A stretch of DNA of 64,000 nt, from assembly GCA_934749845.1 (NCBI GenBank), contig CAKVHQ010000005.1, positions 17,552 through 81,551 of the forward strand, written 5' to 3'. Of the stretch, positions 14,756 to 62,522 are shown piece after piece (positions within the stretch are counted from its first letter, which is position 1; the number at the start of each line of letters is the position of its first letter). A program made the translations under genes and the position numbers. The notes beneath the pieces are model-generated. The model saw only the letters and a list, made by a program, of their open reading frames with translations, was not told the origin of the DNA and searched no databases. Source of the stretch: an uncultured Clostridia bacterium (GTDB taxonomy: Bacteria; Bacillota; Clostridia; Christensenellales; UBA1242).

Positions 14756-16147
14756 TTGGTTCTTAATTTATCAAATCAAGAGTACGAACCAGATTTTCGT
14801 GAAATTATAAATATGTTTTATCCTTTAAACGAGGATAATAATGTTGTTATTGAGATTGAGTATCATTTTGAAAACGACAGTATTTTTGAAGATGTGAAAA
14901 TAACAAAACAAGATGATACGAAAACTTATAATTTAAGTGCAAAACAAAATGAGATTCAGTCTCAAAAAACAATTTTAAAACACTTATTATACACGGCATT
15001 ATCTAGTTTTGAGCAAAAACAACTTCCTTGGGGTTCGTTAACAGGCATAAGACCAACTCGTTTGTGTTACGACTTAATGCGAAAGGGCGTAAAAAAAATA
15101 AGCCTAGTTAACACCTTGAAAAACTACTATTCTGTTAGCGAAGAAAAAGCAAAGTTGTGCCTAGACATAATTCAAAATCAACAACCAATGGAAACGAACG
15201 ATAATCTCGTTGACTTTTATGTTAACATACCGTTCTGCACAACAAGGTGTTCGTATTGTTCTTTTATCTCGGCGGAAATTGGGAAAAACGAGTGCTTGGT
15301 CAAGCCTTATGTTGACGCCTTAATTAACGAAATTAACTACGCCAAGCAAATTATTAGGGATAAACATTTGGTGGTTAAAAATGTCTATTTTGGCGGAGGA
15401 ACGCCAACTTCTTTGCCACTAGAACAGTTGGAAAGAATATTAGAGATAACATGTTTTGGCACAAAAGAATTTACAGTTGAAGCAGGCAGACCCGACACCA
15501 TAACAAAAGAGAAGTTGGAACTTCTTAAAAAATATGGCGTTTCAAGAATAAGTGTTAATCCACAATCTTTTAACGACAAAGTTTTAAAGGCTATTGGAAG
15601 AAATCACACAGCTTCTCAAACACTTGATGCATTTAATTTGGCTAGAAATTATGGCTTTCAAATTAACATGGACTTAATTGCGGGGCTTCCAAAGGAAACT
15701 TTAAAAAGTTTTAAAGAAAGCATTGATATTTGCATGCATTTAGACCCTGAAAATATTACTGTTCACACTTTGGCATTAAAAAGAGGAAGCACTTTTGCAA
15801 ACGAAAATCAAGATATTTTTAAAAAGCCATTAACCGAAAAAATGGAGGACTATGCTCACAAAGAAATCATCAAGCATGGTTATGAGCCATATTATTTGTA
15901 CCGTCAAAAAAACATGGTTGGAAATTTGCAAAATATTGGTTATTGTAAACCAAAAACAAAATGCGATTTTAACATCGACAGCATGGAAGAAACAGTTTCG
16001 ATTATGGCATGCGGAGCAAATGCAATATCAAAAAGAATTTTTAACTTGGAAAATCGTATTGAACGCTATGCAAATTGCAAAGATATAAAAACATATATCA
16101 ACAAAATTGAAGAAATAAATGAGCAAAAGAAAAAATTATTTAATTAA
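14756..16147 (+). CDS. hemZ: Radical SAM HemN-family protein (HemZ-like coproporphyrinogen dehydrogenase homolog)
   Basis: TTG start after GAGGAGGA. CxxxCxxC radical-SAM motif CTTRCSYCSF at ~aa 161 after an N-terminal extension. GGGTP motif. Position after relA as in Clostridia. Confidence 0.7.
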   Translation: MVLNLSNQEYEPDFREIINMFYPLNEDNNVVIEIEYHFENDSIFEDVKITKQDDTKTYNLSAKQNEIQSQKTILKHLLYTALSSFEQKQLPWGSLTGIRPTRLCYDLMRKGVKKISLVNTLKNYYSVSEEKAKLCLDIIQNQQPMETNDNLVDFYVNIPFCTTRCSYCSFISAEIGKNECLVKPYVDALINEINYAKQIIRDKHLVVKNVYFGGGTPTSLPLEQLERILEITCFGTKEFTVEAGRPDTITKEKLELLKKYGVSRISVNPQSFNDKVLKAIGRNHTASQTLDAFNLARNYGFQINMDLIAGLPKETLKSFKESIDICMHLDPENITVHTLALKRGSTFANENQDIFKKPLTEKMEDYAHKEIIKHGYEPYYLYRQKNMVGNLQNIGYCKPKTKCDFNIDSMEETVSIMACGANAISKRIFNLENRIERYANCKDIKTYINKIEEINEQKKKLFN

Positions 16148-36946: not shown

Positions 36947-37255
36947 ATGGAAATTTTACAATTTAACGAAAATTCCTTCAAGGAAGCACTCAATTCAAAC
37001 AAAACCGTTTTGGTAGATTTTTTTGCAACTTGGTGTGGACCATGCAAAATGATAGCCCCAATTTTGCAAGAAGTTAGAGATGAAATGGGCGATGACATAA
37101 TTATTGGAAAAGTTGATGTTGATGATAATTTTGATATTGCAAGAAGTTATGGAATAATGAGTGTTCCAACCTTGTTAGTGTTCAAAAATGGAGAGGAAAC
37201 TTTAAGAAGCATAGGTTTCCAACCAAAACAGGCAATTTTAGATATGTTAAAATAG
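36947..37255 (+). CDS. trxA: Thioredoxin
   Basis: 102 aa with the WCGPC active site. Confidence 0.95.
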   Translation: MEILQFNENSFKEALNSNKTVLVDFFATWCGPCKMIAPILQEVRDEMGDDIIIGKVDVDDNFDIARSYGIMSVPTLLVFKNGEETLRSIGFQPKQAILDMLK

Positions 37256-37278
37256 AGCATTTTGGCTCTATTTTTTTT
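37253..37278 (+). terminator. Intrinsic terminator after trxA
   Basis: TAGAGC-attttg-GCTCTA followed by T8. Confidence 0.75.
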
Positions 37279-37312
37279 GCCAAAAAACCGACTATTTTTT
37301 GTTTTTTAGGTA

Positions 37313-37341
37313 TTGACTTATTTTTAATAAAGTGTTAATAT
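37313..37341 (+). promoter_or_regulatory. Sigma-A-type promoter of the nifS/nifU-like pair
   Basis: TTGACT (37313-37318), 17 nt, TAATAT (37336-37341). Confidence 0.55.
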
Positions 37342-37364
37342 TTATGCGAAAATAAGGAGCAGAT

Positions 37365-38543
37365 ATGGATAGAAAAGTTTATTTAGATGGTGCTAGTGCA
37401 ACATATATCAATAATCAGGTGCTAGCAGAAATGATGCCTGTGCTAACAAACAACTATGCAAGCACTTCAAGTTTGCACAGCATGGGAAACGAAAGCAAAG
37501 AGTTGCTTGAAAAAGCAAGAAGAAGAGTTGCTAAAGGTATTCATGCAAGTTCTCGAGAAATATATTTCACAAGTGGTGAAGATGAAGCAAACACATGGGC
37601 TATTTTGGGACTTTGCAGAGCAAATAGAGATAAAGGTAATCATGTTATTGTTTCAAAAATTGAAAAACCATCAATTTTGAAAGCATGCAAACAACTTGAA
37701 AAAGAAGGCTTTAAAGTTACATACATTCCAGTTGATGAATTTGGCTTTATTAGACTTTCATCTTTAATGCATGAAATAAGAAAAGACACAATTTTGGTTA
37801 GTGTTGGAATTATCAACTATCAAGTTGGAACAATTCAAAACCTTAATGCTATTGCAAGAACTGTTAAGGAAAAGGATATAATCTTCCACTGTGATGCAAC
37901 TTATGCTGTTGGTAATGTTTCAATCAATGTTAAAGAACTAAACATCGATGCTATGACAATTTCTTCAAACAAAATTTATGGCCCAGCAGGTGTTGGTGCA
38001 TTATATGTTAAAGAAAACATCGCTATTGAAAGTTTAATTTATGCAGACGAAGACTTAAAAGAAAAAGCAAATATAGACAATTTGGCAAATATTGTTGGCT
38101 TTGGTAAAGCAGTTGAACTAATAACACAAGATGTAACTTTAAATGCACAAAAATTGCGTCAAATTAGAGAATATCTAACAAAACAAGTTATGGAAAAAAT
38201 CGAAAATGTAACTTTGCTTGGTCACACACATCAAAGAACCGCAAATATTGTTACATTATCATTCCAAAATGTTGACGGAGAAGCACTTTTGTCACTTCTA
38301 GACAGAAAAGGTATTGAAGTTTCAACTTTAAGTATGAACGCAAATTCAAACCACGAAACTCCTCATGTTTTAAAGGCTATGGGAGTTGAAAATATGCTGG
38401 TTAAAAGTGCAATAAGATTTTCAATGGTAAAAAGCACAACAAAAGAAGATATTGACTATGTTGTTGAAAATCTTGCAAAAATTGTTAAACAATTAAGAGA
38501 GTTGTCGCCAGTTAAAATGAACAAACAAGAGAAGGAGGATTAA
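37365..38543 (+). CDS. Class-V aminotransferase-fold NifS/IscS-like protein lacking the catalytic cysteine
   Basis: Collinear with NifS (YLDGASAT, FTSGEDEAN, HCDATYAVG, SSNKIYGPAGVGALY, PHVLKAMG). The SSGSACTS loop reads STLSMNAN, and several PLP contacts are changed. Confidence 0.8.
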   Translation: MDRKVYLDGASATYINNQVLAEMMPVLTNNYASTSSLHSMGNESKELLEKARRRVAKGIHASSREIYFTSGEDEANTWAILGLCRANRDKGNHVIVSKIEKPSILKACKQLEKEGFKVTYIPVDEFGFIRLSSLMHEIRKDTILVSVGIINYQVGTIQNLNAIARTVKEKDIIFHCDATYAVGNVSINVKELNIDAMTISSNKIYGPAGVGALYVKENIAIESLIYADEDLKEKANIDNLANIVGFGKAVELITQDVTLNAQKLRQIREYLTKQVMEKIENVTLLGHTHQRTANIVTLSFQNVDGEALLSLLDRKGIEVSTLSMNANSNHETPHVLKAMGVENMLVKSAIRFSMVKSTTKEDIDYVVENLAKIVKQLRELSPVKMNKQEKED

Positions 38544-38548
38544 GGTCT

Positions 38549-38977
38549 ATGTATAGCGAAAAAGTTTATGAATTATTTGATAATTTAAAAAACAGTGGTC
38601 GTGTTAAAGGTGCAGAAGCAGTAGGTCAAGCTGAAGACAATAATTCTCATGATGTTGTTAAAATTTTTATGCAAATTCAAAATGAAACAGTTGTTGATGC
38701 TAAATTTAAAATTTGCGGAAGTATTGCTTCAATGATTATTGCAGACTATGCAATGGATTTGATAAAAAATTGCACATTAACCGAAGTAAAAGCACTTACA
38801 CTTGATAAGTTAACCGAAAACTTTGTTAATGTTAAAGATTTCGACATCTATAGTGCACGCGTTATTCTAACTGCAATTAAACAAGCTGTTGAAAATTACG
38901 AAGAAAAACAACGAAAAGCACTAATTAAACAATTAAAGGAAGAAGGAAAACCAATTCCAGAAGAATTAAAAAAATAA
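38549..38977 (+). CDS. NifU/IscU N-terminal-domain-like protein with 2 of 3 cluster cysteines replaced
   Basis: MYSEKV start and overall collinearity with IscU/NifU. CGD becomes SHD and HCS becomes YSA. Only the middle Cys (KICGS) is retained. Lys/Glu-rich tail. Confidence 0.7.
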   Translation: MYSEKVYELFDNLKNSGRVKGAEAVGQAEDNNSHDVVKIFMQIQNETVVDAKFKICGSIASMIIADYAMDLIKNCTLTEVKALTLDKLTENFVNVKDFDIYSARVILTAIKQAVENYEEKQRKALIKQLKEEGKPIPEELKK

Positions 38978-38980
38978 ATT

Positions 38981-39003
38981 TCGCACGCTTGTGCGATTTT
39001 TTT
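38981..39003 (+). terminator. Intrinsic terminator after the nifU-like gene
   Basis: TCGCAC-gctt-GTGCGA followed by T7. Confidence 0.8.
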
Positions 39004-39084: not shown

Positions 39085-39222
39085 ATGTTAGACGATAAAT
39101 TGATTATTGGAATGGCTTTGGGCTTTATTGTGGGTGCGATTGTTGCTCATAGTAGTAAAAAAGTTCAACAAGTTATGGACGATGGAAAAGAAATGATTAA
39201 AGAAAAAATTGAACAAATGTAA
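39085..39222 (+). CDS. Small membrane-anchored protein (45 aa, YtxH-like), below the ORF-track size cutoff
   Basis: GGGAGG SD 8 nt upstream of ATG. MLDDKLIIGMALGFIVGAIVAHSSKKVQQVMDDGKEMIKEKIEQM: one TM segment plus an amphipathic tail. Own terminator. Confidence 0.55.
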   Translation: MLDDKLIIGMALGFIVGAIVAHSSKKVQQVMDDGKEMIKEKIEQM

Positions 39223-39230
39223 ACTACATA

Positions 39231-39257
39231 AAAGGTGCAAATTATTGCACTTTTTTT
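39231..39257 (+). terminator. Intrinsic terminator after the 45-aa ORF
   Basis: GTGCAA-atta-TTGCAC followed by T7. Confidence 0.7.
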
Positions 39258-39267
39258 ATTTTTGGTA

Positions 39268-39296
39268 TTGCATTCAACTTTTGCCTATGTTATAAT
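39268..39296 (+). promoter_or_regulatory. Sigma-A-type promoter of the DUF4116 gene
   Basis: TTGCAT (39268-39273), 17 nt, TATAAT (39291-39296). Confidence 0.55.
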
Positions 39297-39324
39297 TTAT
39301 CTAGAAATTTTTGGGGGCAAAATA

Positions 39325-40242
39325 ATGGAATTTGAAGACAGACTAAAACTAATTGAAGAACTAAAAATGGGCGTAGTAAAACTTTCAACTTTGCCACTAG
39401 ACCTTCGTGATGATGAAGAAATAGTGCTAGCGGGAATTTATCACGACCCAGATGAATTAAAATCTGCTAGCGACAGGCTAAAAGCAAACGAAGATATTGC
39501 TTTATACGCTATTTCAAGAAATATTGAATGCATAGAATATCTTTCGCCAGAACTATTTAGTAATAAATCTTTTGCGATGAAAGCCGTTTCAATTTCAAGA
39601 ATCGTTTTTCCTCATTTAACCGACCATTTAAAAGACGACTACGATGTTGCACTAAAAGCCGTTGAACATTATGGCGACCTATTAGAGCATGTTTCGACAA
39701 GATTACAATCAAACAGAAATATCGTGCTTAATGCGGTTAAAAATTGTCCTTATGCTTTGGAGTTTGCTCCAAGCGAATTTAGAAGCGACAAAGTTTTAAT
39801 TTTGGACGCTTTAAAAGCATCTCATTGGAAAAATATTATCTTTTTGCAACTTATTGCCGATAGTTTGAAAAATGATAAGAAATTTGCTTCAAAAATAGTT
39901 AGAAAAAATGGTCTAGCTATAAAATATTTCTCTTTTGAAATTAGAAGCGATAAAGATTTGGTAACTCAAGCAGTAATAAACGATGCTAGAGCTTATGAAT
40001 ATGCTTCTAGAGAAGTAAGAAACATTCCAGAACTAGTTGCGATTGTTTTATTAAATAATTGCTCAATGGAAAATAAATCAAGATATAACAATTTAGGCAA
40101 AATTGAGTACATTATTCCAAGAGAAGCATTAAAACAAGCAAAAGAAATTGTTAAAAACACACAACTAGAAATGCAACTTAAAAAGGCTAAAAAGTTAAAA
40201 AAAGCTGAAACAAATCAAGATGAAGAATATTTGTCATATTAA
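39325..40242 (+). CDS. DUF4116 repeat-containing protein
   Basis: Repeated ~25-50-aa units of the form L(K/R)xD(K/E)(E/D)(I/V/L)xLxA(V/I)xxxxxxxxYxSxE(L/I)(K/R), at least 8 by eye. ATG 39325 is preferred because the ORF-track start at 39235 overlaps the upstream terminator and promoter. Confidence 0.75.
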   Translation: MEFEDRLKLIEELKMGVVKLSTLPLDLRDDEEIVLAGIYHDPDELKSASDRLKANEDIALYAISRNIECIEYLSPELFSNKSFAMKAVSISRIVFPHLTDHLKDDYDVALKAVEHYGDLLEHVSTRLQSNRNIVLNAVKNCPYALEFAPSEFRSDKVLILDALKASHWKNIIFLQLIADSLKNDKKFASKIVRKNGLAIKYFSFEIRSDKDLVTQAVINDARAYEYASREVRNIPELVAIVLLNNCSMENKSRYNNLGKIEYIIPREALKQAKEIVKNTQLEMQLKKAKKLKKAETNQDEEYLSY

Positions 40243-43831: not shown

Positions 43832-44479
43832 ATGTTTACAGCACAAGATATTGTTAAATTAAGAGAAAAAACCGGTGCAGGAATGATGGATTGCAAAAAT
43901 GCATTAAAAGAATGTGACGGAAATATGGACAAAGCGATTGACTATTTGAGAGAAAAGGGAATCGCAAAGGCTGCTAAAAAAGCAGACAGAATCGCAGCAG
44001 AAGGTTTAGTTGAAAGTTATATTCACATGGGCGGAAAAATCGGTGTTCTTGTTGAAGTTAACTGTGAAACAGATTTCGTTGCTCGTTCAGATGCGTTCAA
44101 AACACTTGTAAAAGATATTGCAATGCAAATTGCAGCACAAAGCCCAAAATGCGTTCGTAGAGAAGAAGCAGACATGGCTGATGTTGAAAAAGAAAGAGAA
44201 ATTATGCGTGCTGAAGTGCTTAACGAAGGCAAACCAGCAGCAGTTGTAGACAGAATTGTTGATGGCAAAATTAACAAATACTACAGTGAAATTTGCTTGA
44301 TGGAACAACCATTCATCAAAGACCCATCAAAAACAATTACAGAAATTGTTAACGAAGCAATTTTGTCTATTGGCGAAAAAATTACTGTTAGAAGATTCGT
44401 TCGTTACGAAATGGGCGAAGGTCTTGAAAAAAGACATGATAACTTTGCAGAAGAAGTTATGAGCCAAATGAAAAAGTAA
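43832..44479 (+). CDS. tsf: Elongation factor Ts (short form)
   Basis: VKLREKTGAGMMDCKNALKECDGNMDKAIDYLREKG UBA-like N-terminus. 215 aa. Confidence 0.95.
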   Translation: MFTAQDIVKLREKTGAGMMDCKNALKECDGNMDKAIDYLREKGIAKAAKKADRIAAEGLVESYIHMGGKIGVLVEVNCETDFVARSDAFKTLVKDIAMQIAAQSPKCVRREEADMADVEKEREIMRAEVLNEGKPAAVVDRIVDGKINKYYSEICLMEQPFIKDPSKTITEIVNEAILSIGEKITVRRFVRYEMGEGLEKRHDNFAEEVMSQMKK

Positions 44480-44502
44480 TTTTAGTTATCATTCTACAAA
44501 TT

Positions 44503-44536
44503 AAGCAAACAAGTTATTATATTTGTTTGCTTTTTT
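44503..44536 (+). terminator. Intrinsic terminator after tsf
   Basis: AAGCAAACAA-10nt-TTGTTTGCTT followed by T-rich sequence. Confidence 0.75.
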
Positions 44537-44585
44537 CTTGTTAAAACTATAAACTATAAATAGTATATAAATAGGGAGAAATTTT

Positions 44586-45155
44586 ATGAAATACAGTACA
44601 AAACAAGAAGCCTTTGATGCTTATAAACTTGGTCTTGAAAAGGCAATAGAGCATTTTAAAGGGGAACTTTCTGTTGTTAGAGCAGGCAGAGCAAATCCAA
44701 AGATTTTGGATAGAGTTATGGTGGACTACTATGGCTCACAAACACCATTAAATCAAATGAGCAACATCACCGTTCCAGAACCAAGAACATTGCTTATAAA
44801 TGTTTGGGATATGAGTGCGTTTAAAGAAGTTATTAAATCATTAAACGAAGCAAATTTGGGCGTAAATGTTAGTGATGACGGCAAAAGCATTCGTTTAACA
44901 TTCCCTCAATTAACACAAGACAGAAGACTTGAACTTGTTAAAGGAATTAAAAAAACTGCCGAAGAAAACAGAATTTCACTTCGTAACGAAAGAAGAGAAA
45001 TTATGGACGAATTAAAAGAACAAAAGAAGAATAATATTATAACCGAAGATGAACAATCAGGTGCAGAAAAAGAAGTTCAAAAAATTCTTGACTCTTATAA
45101 CGCAAAGATTGATGAATTACTTGCACAAAAAGAAAAAGAAATTATGGAAGTTTAA
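44586..45155 (+). CDS. frr: Ribosome recycling factor
   Basis: 189 aa with LSVVRAGRANPKILD, ITVPEPRTL, LTQDRR. Confidence 0.97.
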   Translation: MKYSTKQEAFDAYKLGLEKAIEHFKGELSVVRAGRANPKILDRVMVDYYGSQTPLNQMSNITVPEPRTLLINVWDMSAFKEVIKSLNEANLGVNVSDDGKSIRLTFPQLTQDRRLELVKGIKKTAEENRISLRNERREIMDELKEQKKNNIITEDEQSGAEKEVQKILDSYNAKIDELLAQKEKEIMEV

Positions 45156-45232
45156 TTGCTAAAAACTTATAACAAAAGAAATATTATTTTCATAAGTATT
45201 TAGTAAGCATTTTAATTGTTATAAGGAGTTTT

Positions 45233-45958
45233 ATGAAATTATTTAAGAAAAGAACTGCTGGCGTTGATTTAAACAAATTGCCTAACCATATTGCATTCAT
45301 TATAGATGGAAATGGCAGATGGGCAAAAAAGAGAGGACTTCCTCGCACGGCAGGACATAGACAAGGTGTTTTTGCAGTTAAAGATACCATACAAAATTGC
45401 TATAATTATGGCATAAAACAAGTTTCATTCTTTTGCTTTTCAACTGAAAATTGGAATAGGCCACAAGATGAAATTGACGCACTTTTTGGCATGTTAAGAG
45501 ATTTTATTCATGACGACATTGTGCCATATAAAGAGCAAGGAATTAGGTTTTTAATTAGTGGCGACATAACTAAACTTCCACAAGACTTGCAACAAGCAAT
45601 ACAAAATGCGGTTAATGAAACGCAAGATTGCAACAAAATGCTTGTTAATTTGTGCATAAACTATGGTGGAAGATTAGATATTTTAAGAGCAGTTAATTCG
45701 CTTTTAAAGCAAGGAAAAACCGAAGTTAATTATTTAGATTTTGAAAAGGAATTGTACACTAAGAACTTAAGCGAATTGGATTTAGTTGTTAGAACAAGCG
45801 GTGAGCAAAGAATAAGCAATTTTATGCTTTATCAAATGGCTTACGCAGAACTTTATTTTACCAAAACATATTGGCCAGATTTTGACAAAAAGGCTCTTGA
45901 CGAAGCCTTGCTTGATTTCCAGTCAAGAAACAGACGCTTTGGTGCAATAAAGGAGTAA
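45233..45958 (+). CDS. uppS: Isoprenyl transferase (undecaprenyl pyrophosphate synthase)
   Basis: HIAFIIDGNGRWAKKRGLPR, FSTENWNRP, RTSGEQRISNF. Confidence 0.95.
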   Translation: MKLFKKRTAGVDLNKLPNHIAFIIDGNGRWAKKRGLPRTAGHRQGVFAVKDTIQNCYNYGIKQVSFFCFSTENWNRPQDEIDALFGMLRDFIHDDIVPYKEQGIRFLISGDITKLPQDLQQAIQNAVNETQDCNKMLVNLCINYGGRLDILRAVNSLLKQGKTEVNYLDFEKELYTKNLSELDLVVRTSGEQRISNFMLYQMAYAELYFTKTYWPDFDKKALDEALLDFQSRNRRFGAIKE

Positions 45959-45971
45959 TTAGGAGAAAAAA

Positions 45972-46898
45972 ATGAAAACAAGAATTATCACAGGAAGTTT
46001 AATTGGACTAGCTGTTGCTGGTTTCTTTGGACTCAGATTTATTAGTCCTTACTTTTTTGATGCTATGATTGCTATAATCATGGTGTGCGGAGCGGGTGAA
46101 GTTTCAAAAGTTTTTAATCGTAGTGAAAAATACAACAACATGACTCTTGCCACAGTTTTTCCAGTAATGGTAATGACAGGCTTGCTCTTATGTTCACTTT
46201 ATGAACTATCATTCCTTTATGCATTGCTTGTTGAAGGCTCGCTTTTTGTGTTGTTTATTTTAATAACACTTTTATGGACAGCCTGTGATAACAAATCTTT
46301 TAATGCTGAAAAAACAGAAGAACAAACAAAAGCAAAGTATGTTGGCAGGAAATTTGGTTATACACTTATAACTTTTGCTTATCCAACATTGATTTTAAGT
46401 ACGCTTTATTATATCAACCATTTGGCAGACCTTGGAATGACAAAACAGGAAAGTTTGCTTATTGGTTTTATCGCTTTAATTATGCTTTTTGTAACAACAA
46501 TGCTAACAGATGTTTGCGCATACTTTTTTGGCTCTTTAATTAAAGGTCCAAAACTTTGCCCATACATTAGCCCAAACAAAACAATATCTGGTGCATTTGG
46601 CGGAATTTTTGGAGCAGTTGTTGGTGCAATTTGCACATACTTTGTTTTCACGAGCATAGCACCACTTGCAACAATAATAAATGAGTCGAACTTATTCCTT
46701 TGGGTTGTTATTGCTTATTCTGTTGTTGCTTCTATTATTTCACAAGCGGGAGATATTTTCGCTTCGTGGTTAAAAAGAAGAGCAAGAACTAAAGATTTTA
46801 GTACAATTTTCCCTGGACATGGCGGATTTATGGATAGATGTGACGGACTTGCATTTAATGCTGTGTTAACTTTAATTGTCTTTGCTTTGATTTTTTAA
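45972..46898 (+). CDS. cdsA: Phosphatidate cytidylyltransferase
   Basis: Multi-pass membrane protein with the CdsA C-terminal signature SWLKRRARTKDFSTIFPGHGGFMDRCD. Confidence 0.9.
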   Translation: MKTRIITGSLIGLAVAGFFGLRFISPYFFDAMIAIIMVCGAGEVSKVFNRSEKYNNMTLATVFPVMVMTGLLLCSLYELSFLYALLVEGSLFVLFILITLLWTACDNKSFNAEKTEEQTKAKYVGRKFGYTLITFAYPTLILSTLYYINHLADLGMTKQESLLIGFIALIMLFVTTMLTDVCAYFFGSLIKGPKLCPYISPNKTISGAFGGIFGAVVGAICTYFVFTSIAPLATIINESNLFLWVVIAYSVVASIISQAGDIFASWLKRRARTKDFSTIFPGHGGFMDRCDGLAFNAVLTLIVFALIF

Positions 46899-46947
46899 TT
46901 ATAAAAATTCTCAACTTGAATATAATTAGTTATTGGAGTAGCAAAAA

Positions 46948-48270
46948 TTGATAGTTTTATATATATTGTTAGCACTTTTAGTTTTACTTATGATGGTTAC
47001 CATTCATGAGTTTGGACATTATGTTGCTGGCAAAATTTTAGGATTTAAAATAAATGAATTTGCGATAGGCTTTGGACCAAGCCTTTATTCGCATAAATGC
47101 AAAAGTGGAGAAATTTTTTCAATACGACTTTTCCCATTAGGCGGATATTGTGCATTTGAAGGCGAAGAAGGTGGCAGTGATAACAAAGGTGCGTTTTTAA
47201 AACAAAAACCATGGAAAAGGCTAATCGTGCTTTTTAATGGTGCGTTTTTCAACTTTATTTCTGCAATAATTTTCTGTTTTATAATGCTTGTTAGCGTTGG
47301 CTATGACATTCCAAAAGTCTATTCGGTGGATAGCGTTGTTAGAATTGACAGCGTGGTTTATGATATAAGCGAAGGTGGGCATTCAACCGCAATTTTTGAA
47401 TTTAAAGAAAACGATAAAATTATAAAAATAAACGGAGAAGAAGTTTCAAAATATATCAATCAAGACAGCGTTACAAAAGAACAACTTGCTTCTTTGATTT
47501 CGATTGTAACAAAAGAAAGCACTTCAACAAACGGAACTTTAACATTAACTGTTGAAAGAAAAGATGAATCACTTCCAAATCCGGTTGTTTACTATACTAA
47601 ACAAACAAATAAAGGCGAAGGCGATAATTACCTTCAAAAAGGCGATGTAATTTTAAAGGTTAATGGAACGAACATTGACTTTATAAAAGATAACTATTTT
47701 AATAAATTAGTTCAAAATGCAACAAAAAATGGCGATACTGTTGAACTTACTGTTAAGCGAAATGGAAAGCAAGTTCCATTAACACTAAACTTGTATGAAA
47801 CAGGCTTTGCCGATAGCGATGGAAATTATTCAAAGGCTATTGGGGTAAGTAGCACAGCATATAAATTTACTTTTGGCGAGTCACTGGCACGATGTGTGCC
47901 ATACACTTTTGGCTTTTCATGGAAAGTTTTAGGGGCTCTTGGCTCGATAATCACTGGAAAAGTTGGTTTAAGTGATGTTGGCGGACCAATTTATACTATT
48001 GGCACGATTGCTAATTTGTCAGCACAAAGTTGGACATATTTCTTAACACTTTTACCTTTGATTGCTGCAAACTTGGCAATTTTCAACTGGTTGCCATTCC
48101 CAGCACTTGACGGAAGCAAAATGGTTTTAACAACAATAGAATGGATAAAGGGCAAGCCATTGTTCAGCCAAAAAACTGAAAATTTAATTCACACAATAGG
48201 ATTTATCTTGTTGCTTGGACTTGTGTTTATTGCCGATTTTTATCATATAATTGTTGGCATATTTAAGTAG
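46948..48270 (+). CDS. rseP: RIP metalloprotease RseP/RasP (site-2 protease, M50)
   Basis: TTG start. HEFGHY zinc motif in TM1, PDZ-like middle region, NWLPFPALDG motif. Confidence 0.9.
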   Translation: MIVLYILLALLVLLMMVTIHEFGHYVAGKILGFKINEFAIGFGPSLYSHKCKSGEIFSIRLFPLGGYCAFEGEEGGSDNKGAFLKQKPWKRLIVLFNGAFFNFISAIIFCFIMLVSVGYDIPKVYSVDSVVRIDSVVYDISEGGHSTAIFEFKENDKIIKINGEEVSKYINQDSVTKEQLASLISIVTKESTSTNGTLTLTVERKDESLPNPVVYYTKQTNKGEGDNYLQKGDVILKVNGTNIDFIKDNYFNKLVQNATKNGDTVELTVKRNGKQVPLTLNLYETGFADSDGNYSKAIGVSSTAYKFTFGESLARCVPYTFGFSWKVLGALGSIITGKVGLSDVGGPIYTIGTIANLSAQSWTYFLTLLPLIAANLAIFNWLPFPALDGSKMVLTTIEWIKGKPLFSQKTENLIHTIGFILLLGLVFIADFYHIIVGIFK

Positions 48271-48297
48271 AAAGCGTGTTTAAACAAAGGAGAAAAT

Positions 48298-49812
48298 TTG
48301 GAAAAGATTATTGATTATTTATCTTCACAAGGTTGCAAAATTGACTGTTTGCAACTTTTTAGTGTTAAATATAGCCCAGCATTAAATACGCTTAATGTCG
48401 TTTTTTCCTCGCCTGTTGAGTATTCGCAAGAGGATTGTGAAAAAATTAACAATAGCGTAATAAAGTTTGTTGAAAACAGATGTGAAGTGCAAGTTAAAAT
48501 AAAAAAACAAACTATATCTGCCGATAGTTGCGAAATGCTAATTAAAAAACTATTAACAAACAATGCAATTTACTCCACGATTTTTGACTTAAATAACATT
48601 AGCGTAAAACTTTCTCAAAATTTATCTGCTCAAATTGCTTTATGCGTGGATAGCTCGGGTTTTGGCGAGCAAGAAAAGGAAAGATTTGAACATCAATGCG
48701 AGTCGCTTTTAACACCTTATGGTGTTAATTCGCTTGAATTTACCTATGGAAATTTCTCAAAAAATTACGAGCAAATTTTGTCTAGCAGAAGAGAAGTCTT
48801 TAATGAAGAAACTGTTGAAACTCCAAAGACGATTTCCGTTTCTTTCGTCAAGGAATATTTAGGAAAAATGGATAGTCCATGCGATACTATCTTGCCTGAA
48901 AATGTTCAAAGTGGTCAAAAGAACATTTTTGTTGCGGGTCAGTTTGCTGGCTTACAAGAGTTTACAAAGAAAAAAGAAGAAACAGGCAAAGAAACTAAAT
49001 ATTATAAGTTCAATTTGGTAAGTGAAGAATCTAAAATTGAATGTGTGTGCTTTTTGAAAAACGGTGAGGACCTTAAAAATCTCGAACAAAACCAAAAAGT
49101 TGTTGTTTTGGCAGATAGCGATGAGTTTAGGGGAGCGGTAAGTTTGCGTGTTCGTGGACTATCGCTTTGCAAATTTGATTTTCCTAAAAAGCAAGTTAAA
49201 ACAGCAAGCAAAACATACAAGTTAATCAAGCCCGAGCCTTTTGTTTCAAAAGAGCAAATAAGTTTTTTGGAACAAGCAGAGCAAATACATAGCAAGTATT
49301 TATTAAACAATAAATTTGTGGTATTCGACCTTGAAACAACCGGACTTAATTTTAACACCTGCAAAATTATTGAAATTGGTGCTGCAAAAATAGAAAATGG
49401 AAAAATCACAGAAGTTTTTTCAACTTTTGTTAATCCAGAATGTCATATTCCCGAAGAAGCAACGAAAACAAATAATATTACAGACGACATGGTTAAAGAC
49501 GCACCAACATTCGAGCAAGCCTTTCCTGATTTTTATAAATTTATTGAAGGAACAACTTTGGTTGCGCACAACATAAATTTCGATTTTCCTTTTATTTCGT
49601 ATTATGCAAAACCGCTGGGTTATATCTTAAACAACCCCACTCAAGATACTATGTTAATTGCTCAAAAACACCTTGGTCAACTCAAGCACTTTAAATTATC
49701 CACGGTGTGTGATTTCTTGGGTGTGAGCCTTATTGGCGCGCACAGAGCCGTTAATGATACTGTCGCAACTGCAAAAGTTTTCATTAAACTTATAGAAAAG
49801 TACGGAATTTAA
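48298..49812 (+). CDS. PolC-like N-terminal/OB-fold/3'-5' exonuclease protein lacking PHP and polymerase domains
   Basis: TTG start 5 nt after AAAGGAG. DEDDh motifs FVVFDLETTGL, VAHNINFDFPFI, HRAVNDTVATAKVF. An OB-like segment lies upstream. Sits in the polC position of the rseP...nusA block. Confidence 0.75.
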   Translation: MEKIIDYLSSQGCKIDCLQLFSVKYSPALNTLNVVFSSPVEYSQEDCEKINNSVIKFVENRCEVQVKIKKQTISADSCEMLIKKLLTNNAIYSTIFDLNNISVKLSQNLSAQIALCVDSSGFGEQEKERFEHQCESLLTPYGVNSLEFTYGNFSKNYEQILSSRREVFNEETVETPKTISVSFVKEYLGKMDSPCDTILPENVQSGQKNIFVAGQFAGLQEFTKKKEETGKETKYYKFNLVSEESKIECVCFLKNGEDLKNLEQNQKVVVLADSDEFRGAVSLRVRGLSLCKFDFPKKQVKTASKTYKLIKPEPFVSKEQISFLEQAEQIHSKYLLNNKFVVFDLETTGLNFNTCKIIEIGAAKIENGKITEVFSTFVNPECHIPEEATKTNNITDDMVKDAPTFEQAFPDFYKFIEGTTLVAHNINFDFPFISYYAKPLGYILNNPTQDTMLIAQKHLGQLKHFKLSTVCDFLGVSLIGAHRAVNDTVATAKVFIKLIEKYGI

Positions 49813-57673: not shown

Positions 57674-58585
57674 ATGCTTGAAAAAATTGTTCCGCCACAA
57701 CTAGTTGATGCGATTGAACGATTAAACTATTCTAGTTTGCAGGAAATACGCTTAAGAGTTAACAAGCCAACAGTTGTGATGATGAATGGTAAAAGTTATT
57801 ATTTGGGCATAAGTGGTTTAGTGAATGAAAGAAAAAAAGCATATTTTTGCGATGCAGATGACTTGCAGAATATTTTGCTTCAAGCATCAAACCACTCTTT
57901 GTACGCAATAAACGAGCAATTAAAGCAGGGATTTGTTGGACTTAACGATGGAATTAGGCTTGGTGTTACTGGACAAGTTGTAAGTGAAAACGGAAAACTT
58001 GTTACCATGAAAAATTTTAGCGGGATAAATGTTAGAATACCGCACGAAATTAAGGGGTTCGGCGAAAAAATAATAGATTTGCTGTTTGAAAATGACCGAT
58101 TTTTAAACACACTGATAATTTCTCCGCCGGCAGTTGGCAAAACAACGCTTTTAAGAGATTTAATTAGAATAATTTCAGGACAATTCTATGCAAAAAAAGT
58201 TCTTGTTGTTGACGAAAGAAATGAGTTGTCGGCAACTATAAACGCAAAATCACAAATGGATTTAGGCGATTTTAGCGATGTTGTTGTGGATAGCACTAAA
58301 GAATTTGGCTTTTATAATGGTATTCGCTCAATGAACCCAGATATTATCGCTACAGATGAAATTGGAAGCCAAGCAGATTGTAATGTTTTGGAGTATGCTG
58401 GAACTTGTGGAGTGAAAATTTTAGCCACTATTCATGCAGAAAATTTGGAGCAATTAAAGAACAAAATTCAACTTGAAAAAATTTTGAAATTAAAAATATT
58501 TGAACGATTTGTATTTTTAAAAAAAGTGGCTGGAATGCCCGAAATTGCTGAAGTTTTAGATAGAAATTTTGAAAAAATTTTTTGA
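57674..58585 (+). CDS. spoIIIAA: Stage III sporulation protein AA (ATPase)
   Basis: Walker A SPPAVGKTT, Walker B-like VVDE. First gene of an 8-gene spoIIIA-ordered operon. Confidence 0.9.
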   Translation: MLEKIVPPQLVDAIERLNYSSLQEIRLRVNKPTVVMMNGKSYYLGISGLVNERKKAYFCDADDLQNILLQASNHSLYAINEQLKQGFVGLNDGIRLGVTGQVVSENGKLVTMKNFSGINVRIPHEIKGFGEKIIDLLFENDRFLNTLIISPPAVGKTTLLRDLIRIISGQFYAKKVLVVDERNELSATINAKSQMDLGDFSDVVVDSTKEFGFYNGIRSMNPDIIATDEIGSQADCNVLEYAGTCGVKILATIHAENLEQLKNKIQLEKILKLKIFERFVFLKKVAGMPEIAEVLDRNFEKIF

Positions 58586-59097
58586 TAAAGGTGTTTATGA
58601 TAAAGTTAATTTTAATCTTAATTTTATGTTCTTTAATTTTGTTTGTAGCCTACAAAATTTTTATTTACTACAAATCAAGAAAAAATTTTTATGAAAATTG
58701 CTGTGATTTTTGTACAAATTTGCAAGCAAAAATTTCCTATCTAAAAAAGGATATTTTGGGCGTTTTAAATGAAAAAAATAGTTATGGTAAGGATTTTAAT
58801 AAACTACTAGACTCATATAAAAAATGCTTGAATGATTTGTCAAATTTTGACGAAAATTTGAAAAGTGATATTGATAAGTTGGTAATTTTAAAACAGGATG
58901 AAAAAGATAAAATTTTTACATTTTTATCCATACTTGGCAAAAGTAGTGAACAGGAGCAAATAACTCAAATTTTGAATTTTAAGCAAAATTTTATTCAAAA
59001 TTTAGACCAAGCAAAAATAGATAATTCAAAATATGGGGGATTATCTATGAAAATGGGGCTTTTAATTGCCTTAACCATTGTTGTTATATTTATATAA
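58582..59097 (+). CDS. spoIIIAB: Stage III sporulation protein AB
   Basis: 171 aa with N- and C-terminal TM segments flanking a soluble helical domain. Start uncertain (TTG 58582, GTG 58591 or ATG 58597). Confidence 0.8.
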   Translation: MIKVFMIKLILILILCSLILFVAYKIFIYYKSRKNFYENCCDFCTNLQAKISYLKKDILGVLNEKNSYGKDFNKLLDSYKKCLNDLSNFDENLKSDIDKLVILKQDEKDKIFTFLSILGKSSEQEQITQILNFKQNFIQNLDQAKIDNSKYGGLSMKMGLLIALTIVVIFI

Positions 59098-59120
59098 CTT
59101 TAAACAGACGAAAAAAGTGG

Positions 59121-59161
59121 AGTACTATGCAATTTGCATAATACTTTGCGTAGTACTATGC
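59121..59161 (+). promoter_or_regulatory. Three-segment A/B/A' element forming mutually exclusive hairpins upstream of the spoIIIAC SD
   Basis: AGTACTATGC (59121-59130), GCATAATACT (59136-59145), AGTACTATGC (59152-59161). The middle arm pairs 9/10 with either flank. Confidence 0.5.
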
Positions 59162-59177
59162 AAAACAGGAGGGAAAC

Positions 59178-59381
59178 ATGGGGGTTGAAATAATATTTAA
59201 AATCGCGGGAATTGGAATTTTAACTGCTGTTGTTAATCAAGTTTTAAAGTATGCAGGCAAGGACGAAATTGCCACTTTAACTACACTTGCTGGTGTTATA
59301 GTTGTCCTGCTTATGATAGTCAACCTAATAAGCGATTTATTTACTACTGTTAAAGGACTATTTTCGCTGGTTATTATCTAG
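59178..59381 (+). CDS. spoIIIAC: Stage III sporulation protein AC
   Basis: 67 aa, two TM segments. IFKIAGIGILTAVVNQVLK typical of SpoIIIAC. Confidence 0.9.
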   Translation: MGVEIIFKIAGIGILTAVVNQVLKYAGKDEIATLTTLAGVIVVLLMIVNLISDLFTTVKGLFSLVII

Positions 59382-59387
59382 TTTTAT

Positions 59388-59774
59388 ATGGAAATTTTCA
59401 AAATTATTTTAGTTGCTTTAATAACCGTGGTGGCAAGCGTAATTTTAAAGCAGCTTAAGCCAGAAATGACCATTTTTGTGTCTATTGCGGGTGGCATTGT
59501 TATTATTTTGATGCTTGTTAACAGTGTTTCAAATGTTTTTGATGGCTTTAGAAGTTTAATGACAAAAACTGGAGTTAATTCATCACTTTTTAAAAGTGTT
59601 TTAAAGGTGGTTGGAATAGGCTACATAACCGAGTTTGGAGCAAGTATTTGTAAAGATGCAGGGGTGGCTTCGATTGCGGATAAAGTCATGTTTGCGGGCA
59701 AGATTTGTATTTTGCTTTTGTGCATGCCAATCGTAAATAATTTGCTTGAAATTATAATAGGAATTATGCCATGA
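59388..59774 (+). CDS. spoIIIAD: Stage III sporulation protein AD
   Basis: 128 aa, multi-TM, operon position. Confidence 0.88.
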   Translation: MEIFKIILVALITVVASVILKQLKPEMTIFVSIAGGIVIILMLVNSVSNVFDGFRSLMTKTGVNSSLFKSVLKVVGIGYITEFGASICKDAGVASIADKVMFAGKICILLLCMPIVNNLLEIIIGIMP

Positions 59775-60979
59775 AATATAGTTGTAAAAGGCTAAAAACC
59801 AAGCGGATTTTGATTGTTCTAATCATATTATTTATGATTAGTTCTTTTGTTTTGCCTCCGTTTTTTTCTAAAAATGTAACCGCACTTGATACGGATAACA
59901 ATAAAATAGAAGACTATGTTGACGACCAAATAAAAGATATTGATTTTGGCGACTTTGAAAAAATTTTAAACCAACTGGATGATCAACAAAAAAATGCTTT
60001 TGGTGAAAGTTTTGCGGTTAAAATTAAAAAAATTTTATCTGGCGAAACACAGGTGAATTTTGCTTCACTTGGAAGTGCACTTTTAAGCGTGTTTTCTAAA
60101 GATATTGCTGCAATTTTGCCAGTCTTATGCAGTTTGATTGGTATAGGGATTTTGTCAAGCATAATTACGCAGTCAAGTTACTCAACAGATAAAAGTGTTG
60201 CCGAAATTGTGCATTTTGTGTGCTTTGGAATAATAGTAACGATAGTTTTTGCTTCTGTGGCTAACATAATTAAATTAACATCTAACACGCTGTCGGTAAT
60301 TAAAGCCCAAATGGAAGTCGGCTTCCCGATTTTGCTAACGCTTATGACGGCTTTAGGCTCTGTTGTGTCGGTTAGTGTTTATCAACCAGTTGTGGCAATT
60401 TTATCTGGCTCAATCATGACCATTTTCAGTAATTTTGTTATGCCTTTATTTATATTTTGCTTGGTTTTTACAGTTGCTGGGAATTTATCAAACAATGTTA
60501 AATTAAATAAGTTTTCGCAACTATTTATGAACATTTTTAAATGGACGATAGGTATTGTTTTTACGCTATTTTCTTCGCTTTTAGTTGTTCAGGGAATAAC
60601 CGCCGGAAGTTATGACGGACTTTCTATTAGAACTACGAAATACGCTATGAAAAGTTACATTCCTTTTGTTGGTTCGTATTTGTCGGACGGACTTAATTTG
60701 ATACTTACAAGCAGTATGTTAATAAAAAACTCAATCGGGCTTGGATGCTTGATTTTGCTTGCTATTACTGTGCTTGCTCCAATAATTAAAATTTTAGTTC
60801 TTAAACTTGCACTAGCGCTAGCGTCTAGCATACTAGAGCCAATATGCGATAAAAAGATATGCGACTTTTTGTCTGGCGTTTCAAAATGTCTTTCTATGCT
60901 TGTTGCAACAATATGTTCAATAGCGTTTGCTTATTTAATTACAACTGGGCTTATTATGTGCAGTGGAAATTTGGTTTAG
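59771..60979 (+). CDS. spoIIIAE: Stage III sporulation protein AE
   Basis: 402 aa with a signal/TM N-terminus and a polytopic C-terminal region. Operon position. Confidence 0.88.
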   Translation: MKYSCKRLKTKRILIVLIILFMISSFVLPPFFSKNVTALDTDNNKIEDYVDDQIKDIDFGDFEKILNQLDDQQKNAFGESFAVKIKKILSGETQVNFASLGSALLSVFSKDIAAILPVLCSLIGIGILSSIITQSSYSTDKSVAEIVHFVCFGIIVTIVFASVANIIKLTSNTLSVIKAQMEVGFPILLTLMTALGSVVSVSVYQPVVAILSGSIMTIFSNFVMPLFIFCLVFTVAGNLSNNVKLNKFSQLFMNIFKWTIGIVFTLFSSLLVVQGITAGSYDGLSIRTTKYAMKSYIPFVGSYLSDGLNLILTSSMLIKNSIGLGCLILLAITVLAPIIKILVLKLALALASSILEPICDKKICDFLSGVSKCLSMLVATICSIAFAYLITTGLIMCSGNLV

Positions 60980-60987
60980 GAGGGAAT

Positions 60988-61470
60988 ATGAGTGGCTATT
61001 TGCTATCTATTATAGGTGTTGTGGTGCTTGGGGTTTTGGTGGATTTAGTCCTTCCAAGCGGGCAAATGAACAAATATGTTAAGTCTATGTTTGGCATTTT
61101 TACGATACTTGTTATTATTTCTCCCGTGCCAAAACTATTAAACCAAAATTTCGATTTTTCTAAACTTTTTTACAACGAGGCAAGCACGACTATAGACCAA
61201 GATTTTTTAACGGTTACTAACAAAAAAATAGTTGAACAACTGGAAATAAGTGTTGAGAAAAGTTGCGAAAATTCGGGATATAAGCAAGTAAAGTGCGAAA
61301 TTGAAAGTATTTTGGAAAACAACAAAATTGTTATTAAAAAAGTTTCTTTAAATTTGAAAAATATGGTTATTAGCCAAGATCAGCCGCATATAAATAAGTA
61401 TACCGAAATTGTACAGGCTGTTAAGCAAGTGGTGAATGTTGAAAAGGAGCAGATTATTTTCAATGAGTGA
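60988..61470 (+). CDS. spoIIIAF: Stage III sporulation protein AF
   Basis: ATG 60988 follows AGGAGGG. Two N-terminal TM segments (MSGYLLSIIGVVVLGVLVDLVLP...). The ORF-track start at 60859 overlaps spoIIIAE. Confidence 0.85.
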   Translation: MSGYLLSIIGVVVLGVLVDLVLPSGQMNKYVKSMFGIFTILVIISPVPKLLNQNFDFSKLFYNEASTTIDQDFLTVTNKKIVEQLEISVEKSCENSGYKQVKCEIESILENNKIVIKKVSLNLKNMVISQDQPHINKYTEIVQAVKQVVNVEKEQIIFNE

Positions 61471-62038
61471 AGACAAAAAACAGAAAGGTTTATTGAAATC
61501 CATAAGCGAATTGTCTTTTGTGAAAAAGTTGAAAAGCATTAAGCATATTGAAATAATAATAGTTGTTATCTTTATTTTAATTTTGCTTTTAATTTGCTTC
61601 AGCGGGAATGGTGTTTTTGGGTTTTTAAAAACTTCTAAAACAACAAGCGAAACACAAACTTCAACCACTTATATTAACACAACCGAATATGTTTCGAGCA
61701 TAGAAACTAAACTTGAAAATTTACTCTCTGGAATTAAAGGGGCAGGTAATGTTAAAGTTATGGTTTCAATAGACAGTTCGGTTGAACTAAAATTTGCAAC
61801 AGATGAAGTTATTACAACAAACGGTCAAAAAACAGAAACCGAAACGAAAATAATTTTGGTTGAAGTTAACGGCAAAAATGAGCCAATTATAATCAGTGAA
61901 AAATTGCCAAGTGTGACGGGCGTGGTTGTTGTAAGTTCGGGAGCATCGAATACAAAAGTCAAACTGGATATAATTAACGCAATTCAAATCTTGCTTAATA
62001 TTGATTCCAGTCAAATTCAAGTATTTATAGGAAATTAA
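61463..62038 (+). CDS. spoIIIAG: Stage III sporulation protein AG
   Basis: ATG 61463 follows AAGGAG. One TM segment, then the ring-building motif region (VKVMVSIDSS...VTGVVVVSSGA). Confidence 0.85.
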   Translation: MSEDKKQKGLLKSISELSFVKKLKSIKHIEIIIVVIFILILLLICFSGNGVFGFLKTSKTTSETQTSTTYINTTEYVSSIETKLENLLSGIKGAGNVKVMVSIDSSVELKFATDEVITTNGQKTETETKIILVEVNGKNEPIIISEKLPSVTGVVVVSSGASNTKVKLDIINAIQILLNIDSSQIQVFIGN

Positions 62039-62051
62039 AGGAGAATTTATC

Positions 62052-62522
62052 ATGTTAACAAAAAAGAAAAAGATTATAATCTTGTCTGTAATGGCTGTTT
62101 TATTGGTAGTGACTGGATACTTAAATATTGCTTTGAATCGTGGCGTTGTTGAAACTGGCGGAAATGTTACAACTGCAAACTTCTTTTCAACCTACAGAAG
62201 CGACAGGGAGTCGGTTCGTAGCGAAGAAATTAAATACTACGATGCAATAATTGCAAGTGCCGAATCAAGTGCAGAAGCAAAGGCAAGTGCAGAAACAAAA
62301 AAAGCAGATTTAATTAAGGCTATGGAAACCGAACTTGTAACCGAAGGTTTAATTAAAGCAAAAGGCTTTGAAGATGTTATCGTAACCAGCACAACATCAA
62401 ACGTTAAAGTTGTTGTTAAATCGGCAGAATTAACAAAATCTCAAGTGGCTCAAATAGTGGATATTGTTAAGGAACAAACAGGTCTTGCCATAGATTACAT
62501 TAAAATTATTCCAGTTGAATAG
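62052..62522 (+). CDS. spoIIIAH: Stage III sporulation protein AH
   Basis: 156 aa with an N-terminal TM segment and a YscJ/FliF-like C-terminal domain pattern. Last gene of the operon. Confidence 0.8.
   Translation: MLTKKKKIIILSVMAVLLVVTGYLNIALNRGVVETGGNVTTANFFSTYRSDRESVRSEEIKYYDAIIASAESSAEAKASAETKKADLIKAMETELVTEGLIKAKGFEDVIVTSTTSNVKVVVKSAELTKSQVAQIVDIVKEQTGLAIDYIKIIPVE

Follow-up and report, generated by a model that had tools for sequence, protein, structure and literature searches.

A NifS-NifU-type gene pair lacking catalytic and cluster-ligand residues is retained under purifying selection in uncultured gut Clostridia

We report on two adjacent genes in a 64,000-nucleotide stretch (the window) of contig CAKVHQ010000005.1 from an uncultured Clostridia bacterium, which encode a protein with the fold of the cysteine desulfurases NifS and IscS and a protein with the fold of the iron-sulfur (Fe-S) scaffolds NifU and IscU. 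Catalytic and ligand residues have been lost from the two proteins and the folds have been kept. The genes are under purifying selection, the relaxation of constraint is limited to the old active site, and the loss occurred at least twice, independently. Both open reading frames (ORFs) are intact, as had been claimed in a first-pass annotation of this DNA, and the genes and the parts of them that are referred to below are as follows (coordinates are those of the window; PLP, pyridoxal 5'-phosphate; AF2, AlphaFold2; pLDDT, predicted local distance difference test).

37365..38543, + strand: gene for the NifS/IscS-fold pseudo-desulfurase, 392 amino acids (ORF call, domain match and AF2 model)
37665..37667, + strand: Lys codon 101, which replaces the PLP-stacking His (His104 of E. 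coli IscS; alignments)
37971..37973, + strand: codon 203, the kept Schiff-base Lys, with Asn202 before it (alignments)
38040..38081, + strand: remnant of the GGxQE..RxGTxN block, residues 226-239 (alignments and pLDDT)
38319..38369, + strand: remnant of the mobile persulfide loop, residues 319-335, with Asn325 (alignments)
38549..38977, + strand: gene for the IscU/NifU-fold pseudo-scaffold, 142 amino acids (ORF call, domain match and AF2 model)
38885..38974, + strand: C-terminal helix and tail of the NifU-like protein, residues 113-142 (..AVENYEEKQRKALIKQLKEEGKPIPEELKK; conservation in relatives)

The NifS-like protein matches the Pfam family Aminotran_5 (PF00266, 4.7e-66) with its residues 5-366 over the whole profile (positions 1-371 of 371), and its best NCBIfam match is NifS (TIGR03402), in keeping with the collinearity with NifS/IscS that the first reading had noted. 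The score of 391.2 bits is below the equivalog cutoff of 530.75, and the match to IscS (TIGR02006) likewise falls below its cutoff (320 bits, cutoff 643). The fold is of type I, with 391 bits for NifS and 149 bits for SufS, and the AF2 model (pLDDT 84.9) gave template modelling (TM) scores of approximately 0.9 to NFS1, E. coli IscS and Archaeoglobus fulgidus IscS (0.91 to NFS1/IscS structures). The only internal segments modelled with low confidence, residues 226-235 (pLDDT <50) and approximately 321-330 (pLDDT ~65), are the two loops that bear active-site residues in working enzymes.

Substitutions in the NifS-like protein were identified using HMMER alignments to solved IscS structures and a MAFFT alignment with 87 canonical relatives. 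Specifically, GGTEAN reads GEDEAN (Gly72 to Glu, Thr73 to Asp), NNE reads NYQ, DAxQ reads DATY (Gln to Tyr180, with Asp177, E. coli Asp180, kept) and SxHK reads SSNK (His to Asn202, with the Schiff-base Lys203, E. coli Lys206, kept). IEH has become IEK, with Lys101 at the place of the PLP-stacking His; this position is His in 87/87 canonical relatives and Asp (22), Lys (5) or Ser (1) in 28 degenerate forms. The GGxQE..RAGTxN block, by which the partner subunit contacts the PLP phosphate, reads ADEDLKEKANIDN. Five of the seven residues that contact PLP in IscS structures have been replaced (in E. coli numbering first, His104 to Lys101, Thr76 to Asp73, Gln183 to Tyr180, His205 to Asn202 and Thr243' to Ile237), and two acidic replacements stand at the phosphate site; Arg351 has also been kept. 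Finally, SGSAC reads LSMN, with Asn325 for the catalytic Cys (E. coli Cys328), and neither the profile nor the multiple alignments place any Cys within loop residues 319-335, a loop with the Cys in all 87 canonical relatives. Because it has no loop cysteine, the protein is predicted to be unable to form a persulfide. The manual readings of a missing catalytic Cys, of IEK, of SSNK with Lys kept and His lost, and of a degenerate GGxQE block were all borne out, and profile alignment restored neither the active-site Cys nor the IscU cysteines.

The partner protein matches NifU_N (PF01592, 1.8e-15, profile positions 1-126 of 127) and scores far below the equivalog cutoffs (67.1 bits against 187.9 for NifU_clost, TIGR03419, and 42.9 bits against 192.4 for TIGR01999); its AF2 model (pLDDT 84.9) has the IscU chains 4eb5_C and 3lvl_A as best matches in the PDB. 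In HMMER alignments to solved IscU structures, CGD reads SHD (Ser33), FGC reads CGS (Ser58) and HCS reads YSA (Tyr101 for His, Ser102), so that none of the three cluster-ligand positions holds Cys. The first and last of these changes had been read correctly before, and we reject the accompanying claim that the central Cys is retained: Cys56 of FKICGS lies, by profile alignment, two residues upstream of the canonical Cys2 position, where Ser58 is found, and in relatives it is shifted (FKCDGS) or gone (FKAFGS). Nor did the Lys/Glu-rich tail arise with degeneration, as had been proposed, since the closest canonical relative, at locus L095, has the same tail on a NifU with CGD, FGC and HCS all present. 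In the window's clade the C-terminal helix and tail read YEEKQRKxLIKQLKEEGKPIPEELKK, and the tail is 63-73% identical in relatives in which the core is approximately 30% identical. The degenerate IscU-like proteins are looser overall (top-residue frequency 0.53 vs 0.76 in canonical NifU) and keep an N-terminal MYSxK..F.N..N.G segment; their alignment contains no conserved set of Cys, His or Asp residues.

The two genes are separated by 5 nt from stop to start, and in orthologous loci they abut or overlap. Both have strong Shine-Dalgarno sequences, and the signals around the pair are as follows.

37253..37280, + strand: hairpin and T-run 3' of trx, between thiF-trx and the pair (-9.8 kcal/mol, z -3.2)
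37313..37341, + strand: candidate sigma-70-like promoter, TTGACT-17-TAATAT, TG-extended (9/12 consensus match)
37354..37359, + strand: Shine-Dalgarno AAGGAG, 5 nt 5' of the ATG of the NifS-like gene (sequence reading)
38534..38539, + strand: Shine-Dalgarno GGAGGA for the NifU-like gene, within the end of the NifS-like gene (sequence reading)
38981..39003, + strand: intrinsic terminator, 6-bp GC-rich stem and T-run (terminator detection and folding)

The terminator, which had been annotated earlier together with the promoter, was detected independently (stem 38981-38996 followed by the T-run; fold -9.6 kcal/mol, z -1.96). The promoter fared less well: 19 promoter-like 9/12 matches were found in the region vs 17.7 expected from shuffles, so the match at 37313-37341 is no better than chance and counts as a candidate only. 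The hairpin and T-run after trx suggest that the pair is transcribed separately from the genes before it. Scanning the window against Rfam and for tRNAs gave no hits, so the locus has no riboswitch or T-box and the window no rRNA. The neighbours of the pair are housekeeping genes, and a role in Dnd/Ssp defence was rejected: PADLOC gave only family-level DndA/SspA matches, there are no dndBCDE or sspBCD partners, and the catalytic Cys is gone.

A search of 5.8 billion proteins returned a smooth identity series of NifS-like relatives. Those at 81-100% identity carry the same substitutions as the window's protein, and those at 52-68% identity are a mixture of other degenerate forms and fully canonical NifS. 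The gene order trmFO-hslV-hslU-(hisS)-thiF-trx-NifS-NifU-orf45-ruvX-DUF1292-rpsB-tsf-frr-uppS-cdsA-rseP is common to every degenerate form with a readable contig. Both copies are unbroken and syntenic in all relatives examined, from 99% to approximately 52% identity, with none disrupted or absent, and the pair occupies a fixed chromosomal position throughout this lineage of uncultured gut Clostridia. Within 1.84 billion representative proteins the whole degenerate family forms one 50%-identity cluster, and a single contig search of genomes returned only canonical NifS loci and not the window's own species, the best being a Christensenellales metagenome-assembled genome (MAG) at 55% identity.

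Among the relatives are graded intermediates, with different subsets of the residues. The closest canonical NifS (P0011, locus L095, 63% identity) has the same synteny. A protein at 68% identity (P0010, locus L005) keeps Thr, Lys and the loop Cys and has lost His101 and His202, and its partner NifU has only Cys2. In a second degenerate clade (clade B, clade A being that of the window) four residues of the Cys loop are deleted and the Lys, too, is mostly gone, again with the same synteny; in its canonical sister (P0023, locus L096) the NifU is already cysteine-free. In ordinary Clostridia the arrangement is NifS-NifU-MnmA with all residues intact.

A neighbour-joining bootstrap tree was computed with the active-site columns masked. 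Clade A grouped with the canonical P0011 (84%) and clade B with its canonical sister group (the P0016 group; 100%), and clades A and B as an exclusive group received 0%. The desulfurase thus died at least twice independently and in steps, and in the clade B lineage the scaffold cysteines were lost before the desulfurase chemistry.

Canonical NifS next to an IscU-like partner lacking one to three ligand Cys was also seen in Christensenellales-like or other uncultured Clostridia MAGs (L010-L015, L021, L022, L042 and L096), with the synteny hslU-(thiF)-trx-nifS-nifU-orf45-ruvX. These loci look like the preceding evolutionary stage. The literature searched contained no account of them, and an active desulfurase with a ligand-less "scaffold" appears to be undescribed.

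Selection on the pair was estimated as the ratio of non-synonymous to synonymous substitution rates (dN/dS, omega) by the Nei-Gojobori method; dS is high in the more distant pairs, for which the ratios are approximate. For the NifS-like gene dN/dS was 0.045 against a 95%-identical orthologue (L090; 88 synonymous and 20 non-synonymous changes) and 0.07-0.115 in the other pairwise comparisons with 82-85% orthologues; for the NifU-like gene the corresponding values were 0.053 and 0.17-0.25. Neighbouring genes gave 0.03-0.06 (ThiF), 0.08-0.15 with one pair at 0.26 (Trx), 0.05-0.06 (RuvX), 0.03 (HslU) and 0.08 (TrmFO). Both genes are under purifying selection and are not decaying, and the dN/dS of the NifS-like gene is similar to that of the neighbouring housekeeping genes. 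Together with the intact syntenic orthologues these low ratios support the first-pass annotation in its reading that the pair is retained under selection for a function other than the canonical one.

Comparing the 28 degenerate NifS-like forms with the 87 canonical relatives site by site, we found 26 positions that are at least 90% conserved in the canonical set and vary in the degenerate one. These include Thr73, His101, Asn152, Glu153, Gln180, His202, Lys203, Gly227, Gln229, Glu230, Gly236, Thr237 and Gly322-Cys325, thus covering every PLP and catalytic residue. The two sets share 72 conserved positions, and overall conservation has not dropped (mean top-residue frequency 0.70 vs 0.71); relaxed constraint is restricted to the old active sites. 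Almost no positions are newly conserved in the degenerate forms. Cys176 is invariant there, yet is present in 14/87 canonical relatives, and Cys108 is nearly invariant and equally conserved in the canonical enzymes. A new metal site built from Cys176 and Cys108 or from the SHD motif was rejected for this reason, its residues being either canonical as well or not conserved among the degenerate forms. Lys203 is kept in 12/28 degenerate forms and is otherwise Gln, Val, Asn, Leu, Arg, Ile or Thr (16/28), and the replacement of His101 differs by lineage, being Asp, Lys or Ser in the degenerate forms and Gln in the intermediate P0010. Replacements that vary from one lineage to the next speak against any new chemistry in common, and the site pattern as a whole marks a pseudoenzyme that has been retained for its structure or surfaces.

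We consider it probable that the pair forms a catalytically dead NifS2-NifU2-type complex kept for a binding or structural role. Both genes would be dead descendants of the clostridial two-gene NifS-NifU module (IscS/IscU-like, 'MIS'-type), the NifS-like protein keeping the type I desulfurase fold without a persulfide and the IscU-like protein keeping the scaffold fold without cluster ligands. The two proteins would still form a NifS2-NifU2-type complex, because conservation extends to the N-terminus of NifU, the LRELSP region at the C-terminus of NifS and the 72 core and surface positions, and translation of the two genes is coupled. The selected function may be a sulfur-independent binding, adaptor or structural role that was already present in the ancestral complex and that probably involves the NifU-like protein's strongly conserved C-terminal helix with its PIPEELKK tail. 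Such an ancestral role would explain why the chemistry was lost repeatedly while the genes were kept. The Fe-S clusters of enzymes such as the HemZ-type protein described below would come from a different assembly system encoded elsewhere in the genome. We are evenly divided on a wider proposal, in which the ancient MIS-type complex of NifS and NifU in Firmicutes would serve a further, sulfur-independent purpose as a structure or adaptor, acting through the preserved heterotetramer and the C-terminal helix and tail (PIPEELKK) of NifU; that purpose would matter enough to hold both proteins under strong selection once the catalytic and cluster-binding residues had all gone, in two independent events.

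Several points weigh against this interpretation. The non-catalytic role is inferred by exclusion; the core of the NifU-like protein evolves fast (omega up to 0.25, with the low top-residue frequency given above), which could reflect partial relaxation; and the window's subclade, in which Lys203, Asp177 and Arg351 persist, may have residual PLP binding or a new PLP chemistry.

Taken as a full alternative, a neofunctionalised PLP enzyme would in the window's subclade bind PLP via Lys203 and Asp177 and catalyse a Cys-independent reaction (lyase, transaminase or other). Lys203, Asp177 and Arg351 are kept in all relatives of at least 81% identity, and the replaced active-site residues are identical within the subclade. 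However, the changes Thr73 to Asp and Gly72 to Glu bring negative charge to the phosphate site, His101, Gln180, His202 and Thr237 have all been replaced, and model confidence is low only in the loops of the former active site; in the orthologous sister lineages, moreover, Lys has given way to seven other residues and the pocket residues are lineage-specific, so that there is no common new chemistry. We regard such an enzyme as rather unlikely.

The organism has a need for [4Fe-4S] clusters, as seen from a HemZ-type radical S-adenosylmethionine protein encoded after relA (14756..16147, + strand; 475 bits, cutoff 321) in which CTTRCSYC (CxxxCxxC) is intact. The pair, being devoid of the required residues, could not plausibly supply them, which implies another assembly system. 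The alternative that the pair itself builds or carries clusters from free sulfide, which is abundant in the gut, using non-canonical ligands, has a precedent in the inactive IscS that serves as a scaffold partner in A. fulgidus (PMC8918507), and the invariant Cys176 and nearly invariant Cys108 could be seen in the same light. Yet the A. fulgidus ligands are one Cys in the loop of IscS and three in IscU, all four of which are gone here; no Cys, His or Asp set is shared by the degenerate IscU-like proteins, and the distribution of Cys108 and Cys176 among canonical enzymes is as described. We judge this kind of cluster assembly to be unlikely.

That the genes are relics, no longer useful and on their way out of a shrinking genome, would fit with the fast-evolving NifU-like core and with a genome that looks reduced (one assembly has the locus on a contig of 888 kb, and the window lacks pyrH, dxr and proS at their usual places). 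It is nonetheless very unlikely, given more than 15 independent orthologous loci that are all free of frameshifts and stop codons, an omega of 0.045-0.115 for the NifS-like gene like that of its housekeeping neighbours, conservation outside the active site at the level of working enzymes, and retention of the genes in two independently degenerated clades.

E. coli CsdA-CsdE is linked to TcdA and promotes the formation of cyclic N6-threonylcarbamoyladenosine (ct6A), a product without sulfur. By analogy the pair could be an accessory module of the TcdA-like ThiF enzyme, whose gene, together with trx, directly precedes the pair here and in most of the related loci; we consider this very unlikely, as the thiF linkage is not universal (thiF is absent from that position in L005/L006 and L010-L016 despite the presence of the pair), a terminator-like hairpin stands between trx and the pair, the ThiF protein reaches 147 bits where the TcdA cutoff is 304, and the partner is IscU-like and not SufE/CsdE-like.

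Among known systems, the pair is a direct descendant of the clostridial NifS-NifU system, named MIS (MisS-MisU) in the classification of Garcia et al., as summarised in PMC13066941: both folds, the gene order and the tight coupling are the same, and the closest canonical relatives (P0011/L095) have the same chromosomal position and the same NifU tail. It differs from MIS by the loss of the catalytic Cys, the PLP-stacking His, most PLP contacts and all scaffold cysteines, by scores far below the NifS/NifU equivalog cutoffs, and by the absence of the mnmA gene that adjoins NifS-NifU in ordinary Clostridia. The nearest parallel on record is the inactive IscS of A. fulgidus (4hvk, 4eb5), likewise an IscS fold without desulfurase activity that has been kept with IscU, and among the best structural matches of the NifS-like protein (TMq 0.91, TMt 0.94; 260 bits). 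In that protein the Lys has been lost (Asp199), the loop Cys and the three IscU cysteines hold a [2Fe-2S] cluster, and pyridoxamine 5'-phosphate is bound (PMC8918507). The window pair is the opposite, with Lys kept and the loop Cys, the His and all IscU cysteines lost, so that the scaffold mechanism of A. fulgidus is not available to it. In SufS-SufU and CsdA-CsdE a desulfurase-fold protein is also encoded beside a small IscU- or SufE-type partner; these differ in being type II desulfurases with a conserved acceptor Cys, whereas the window pair is of type I and has no such Cys. The literature searched for dead bacterial desulfurase pairs contained no description with both partners dead.

Few machines in biology are as conserved as the pairs of cysteine desulfurase and scaffold, and automatic annotation assigns them to Fe-S assembly, which would be wrong for this lineage. 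The locus offers a natural series, from a canonical pair via a dead scaffold with a live enzyme to a pair with both dead, replicated in two clades, and thereby isolates the role of the complex apart from sulfur chemistry. If that role is identified, a moonlighting function of the NifS/IscS-IscU complex would be exposed and a bacterial example of a co-evolving pseudoenzyme pair added. There is also a bearing on the metabolic reconstruction of abundant uncultured gut Clostridia, namely on which Fe-S and thiolation pathways can be assumed.

In the wider family, approximately 15 of the 149 best NifS/IscS-like representatives (~10%) are without His, Lys or Cys at the aligned sites, including P0140, P0163, P0165, P0168, P0171, P0183, P0184, P0208, P0215, P0241, P0255 and P0260. 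In some of these Lys has been replaced by Asp or Asn, a pattern known from A. fulgidus. Sporadic partial degeneration of the NifS/IscS family thus seems to be commoner than the literature suggests, as far as can be judged from aligned residues.

The window has a GC content of 33%, all its large ORFs are on one strand and the gene order is that of a Firmicute. It contains a spoIIIAA-AH operon (57674..62522, + strand; AA, AB, AE, AF and AH recognised), and the organism looks like a spore-former, though its genome seems reduced. Relative to the usual Firmicute order, pyrH is absent between tsf and frr, dxr between cdsA and rseP, and proS before a polC-like gene (43832..48298). At the polC site, after rseP and before nusA/infB, lies a gene (48298..49812, + strand) for a protein of 504-515 amino acids that is also found in L001, L003, L005, L007, L092, L095 and L096. 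Its only recognised domain is a PolC-type 3'-5' exonuclease (residues ~332-501, corresponding to PolC 417-587); it is without a polymerase domain, its 330-residue N-terminus matches nothing, and it may be a split or truncated PolC.

Directly downstream of the pair, a conserved ORF of 45 amino acids, orf45 (MLDDKLIIGMALGFIVGAIVAHSSKKVQQVMDDGKEMIKEKIEQM; 39085..39222, + strand), encodes a hydrophobic helix followed by a charged helix. It follows the NifU-like gene in most of the related loci whose sequence reaches this point, has a dN/dS of 0.02-0.04 and matches no Pfam or NCBIfam family; it is probably a genuine gene for a small membrane protein. Between orf45 and ruvX a gene for a DUF4116-repeat protein with five repeats (39235..40242, + strand) has been inserted. 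This insertion is absent in L003, L005, L007 and L089 and is present only in the closest relatives (the window, L001 and L090).

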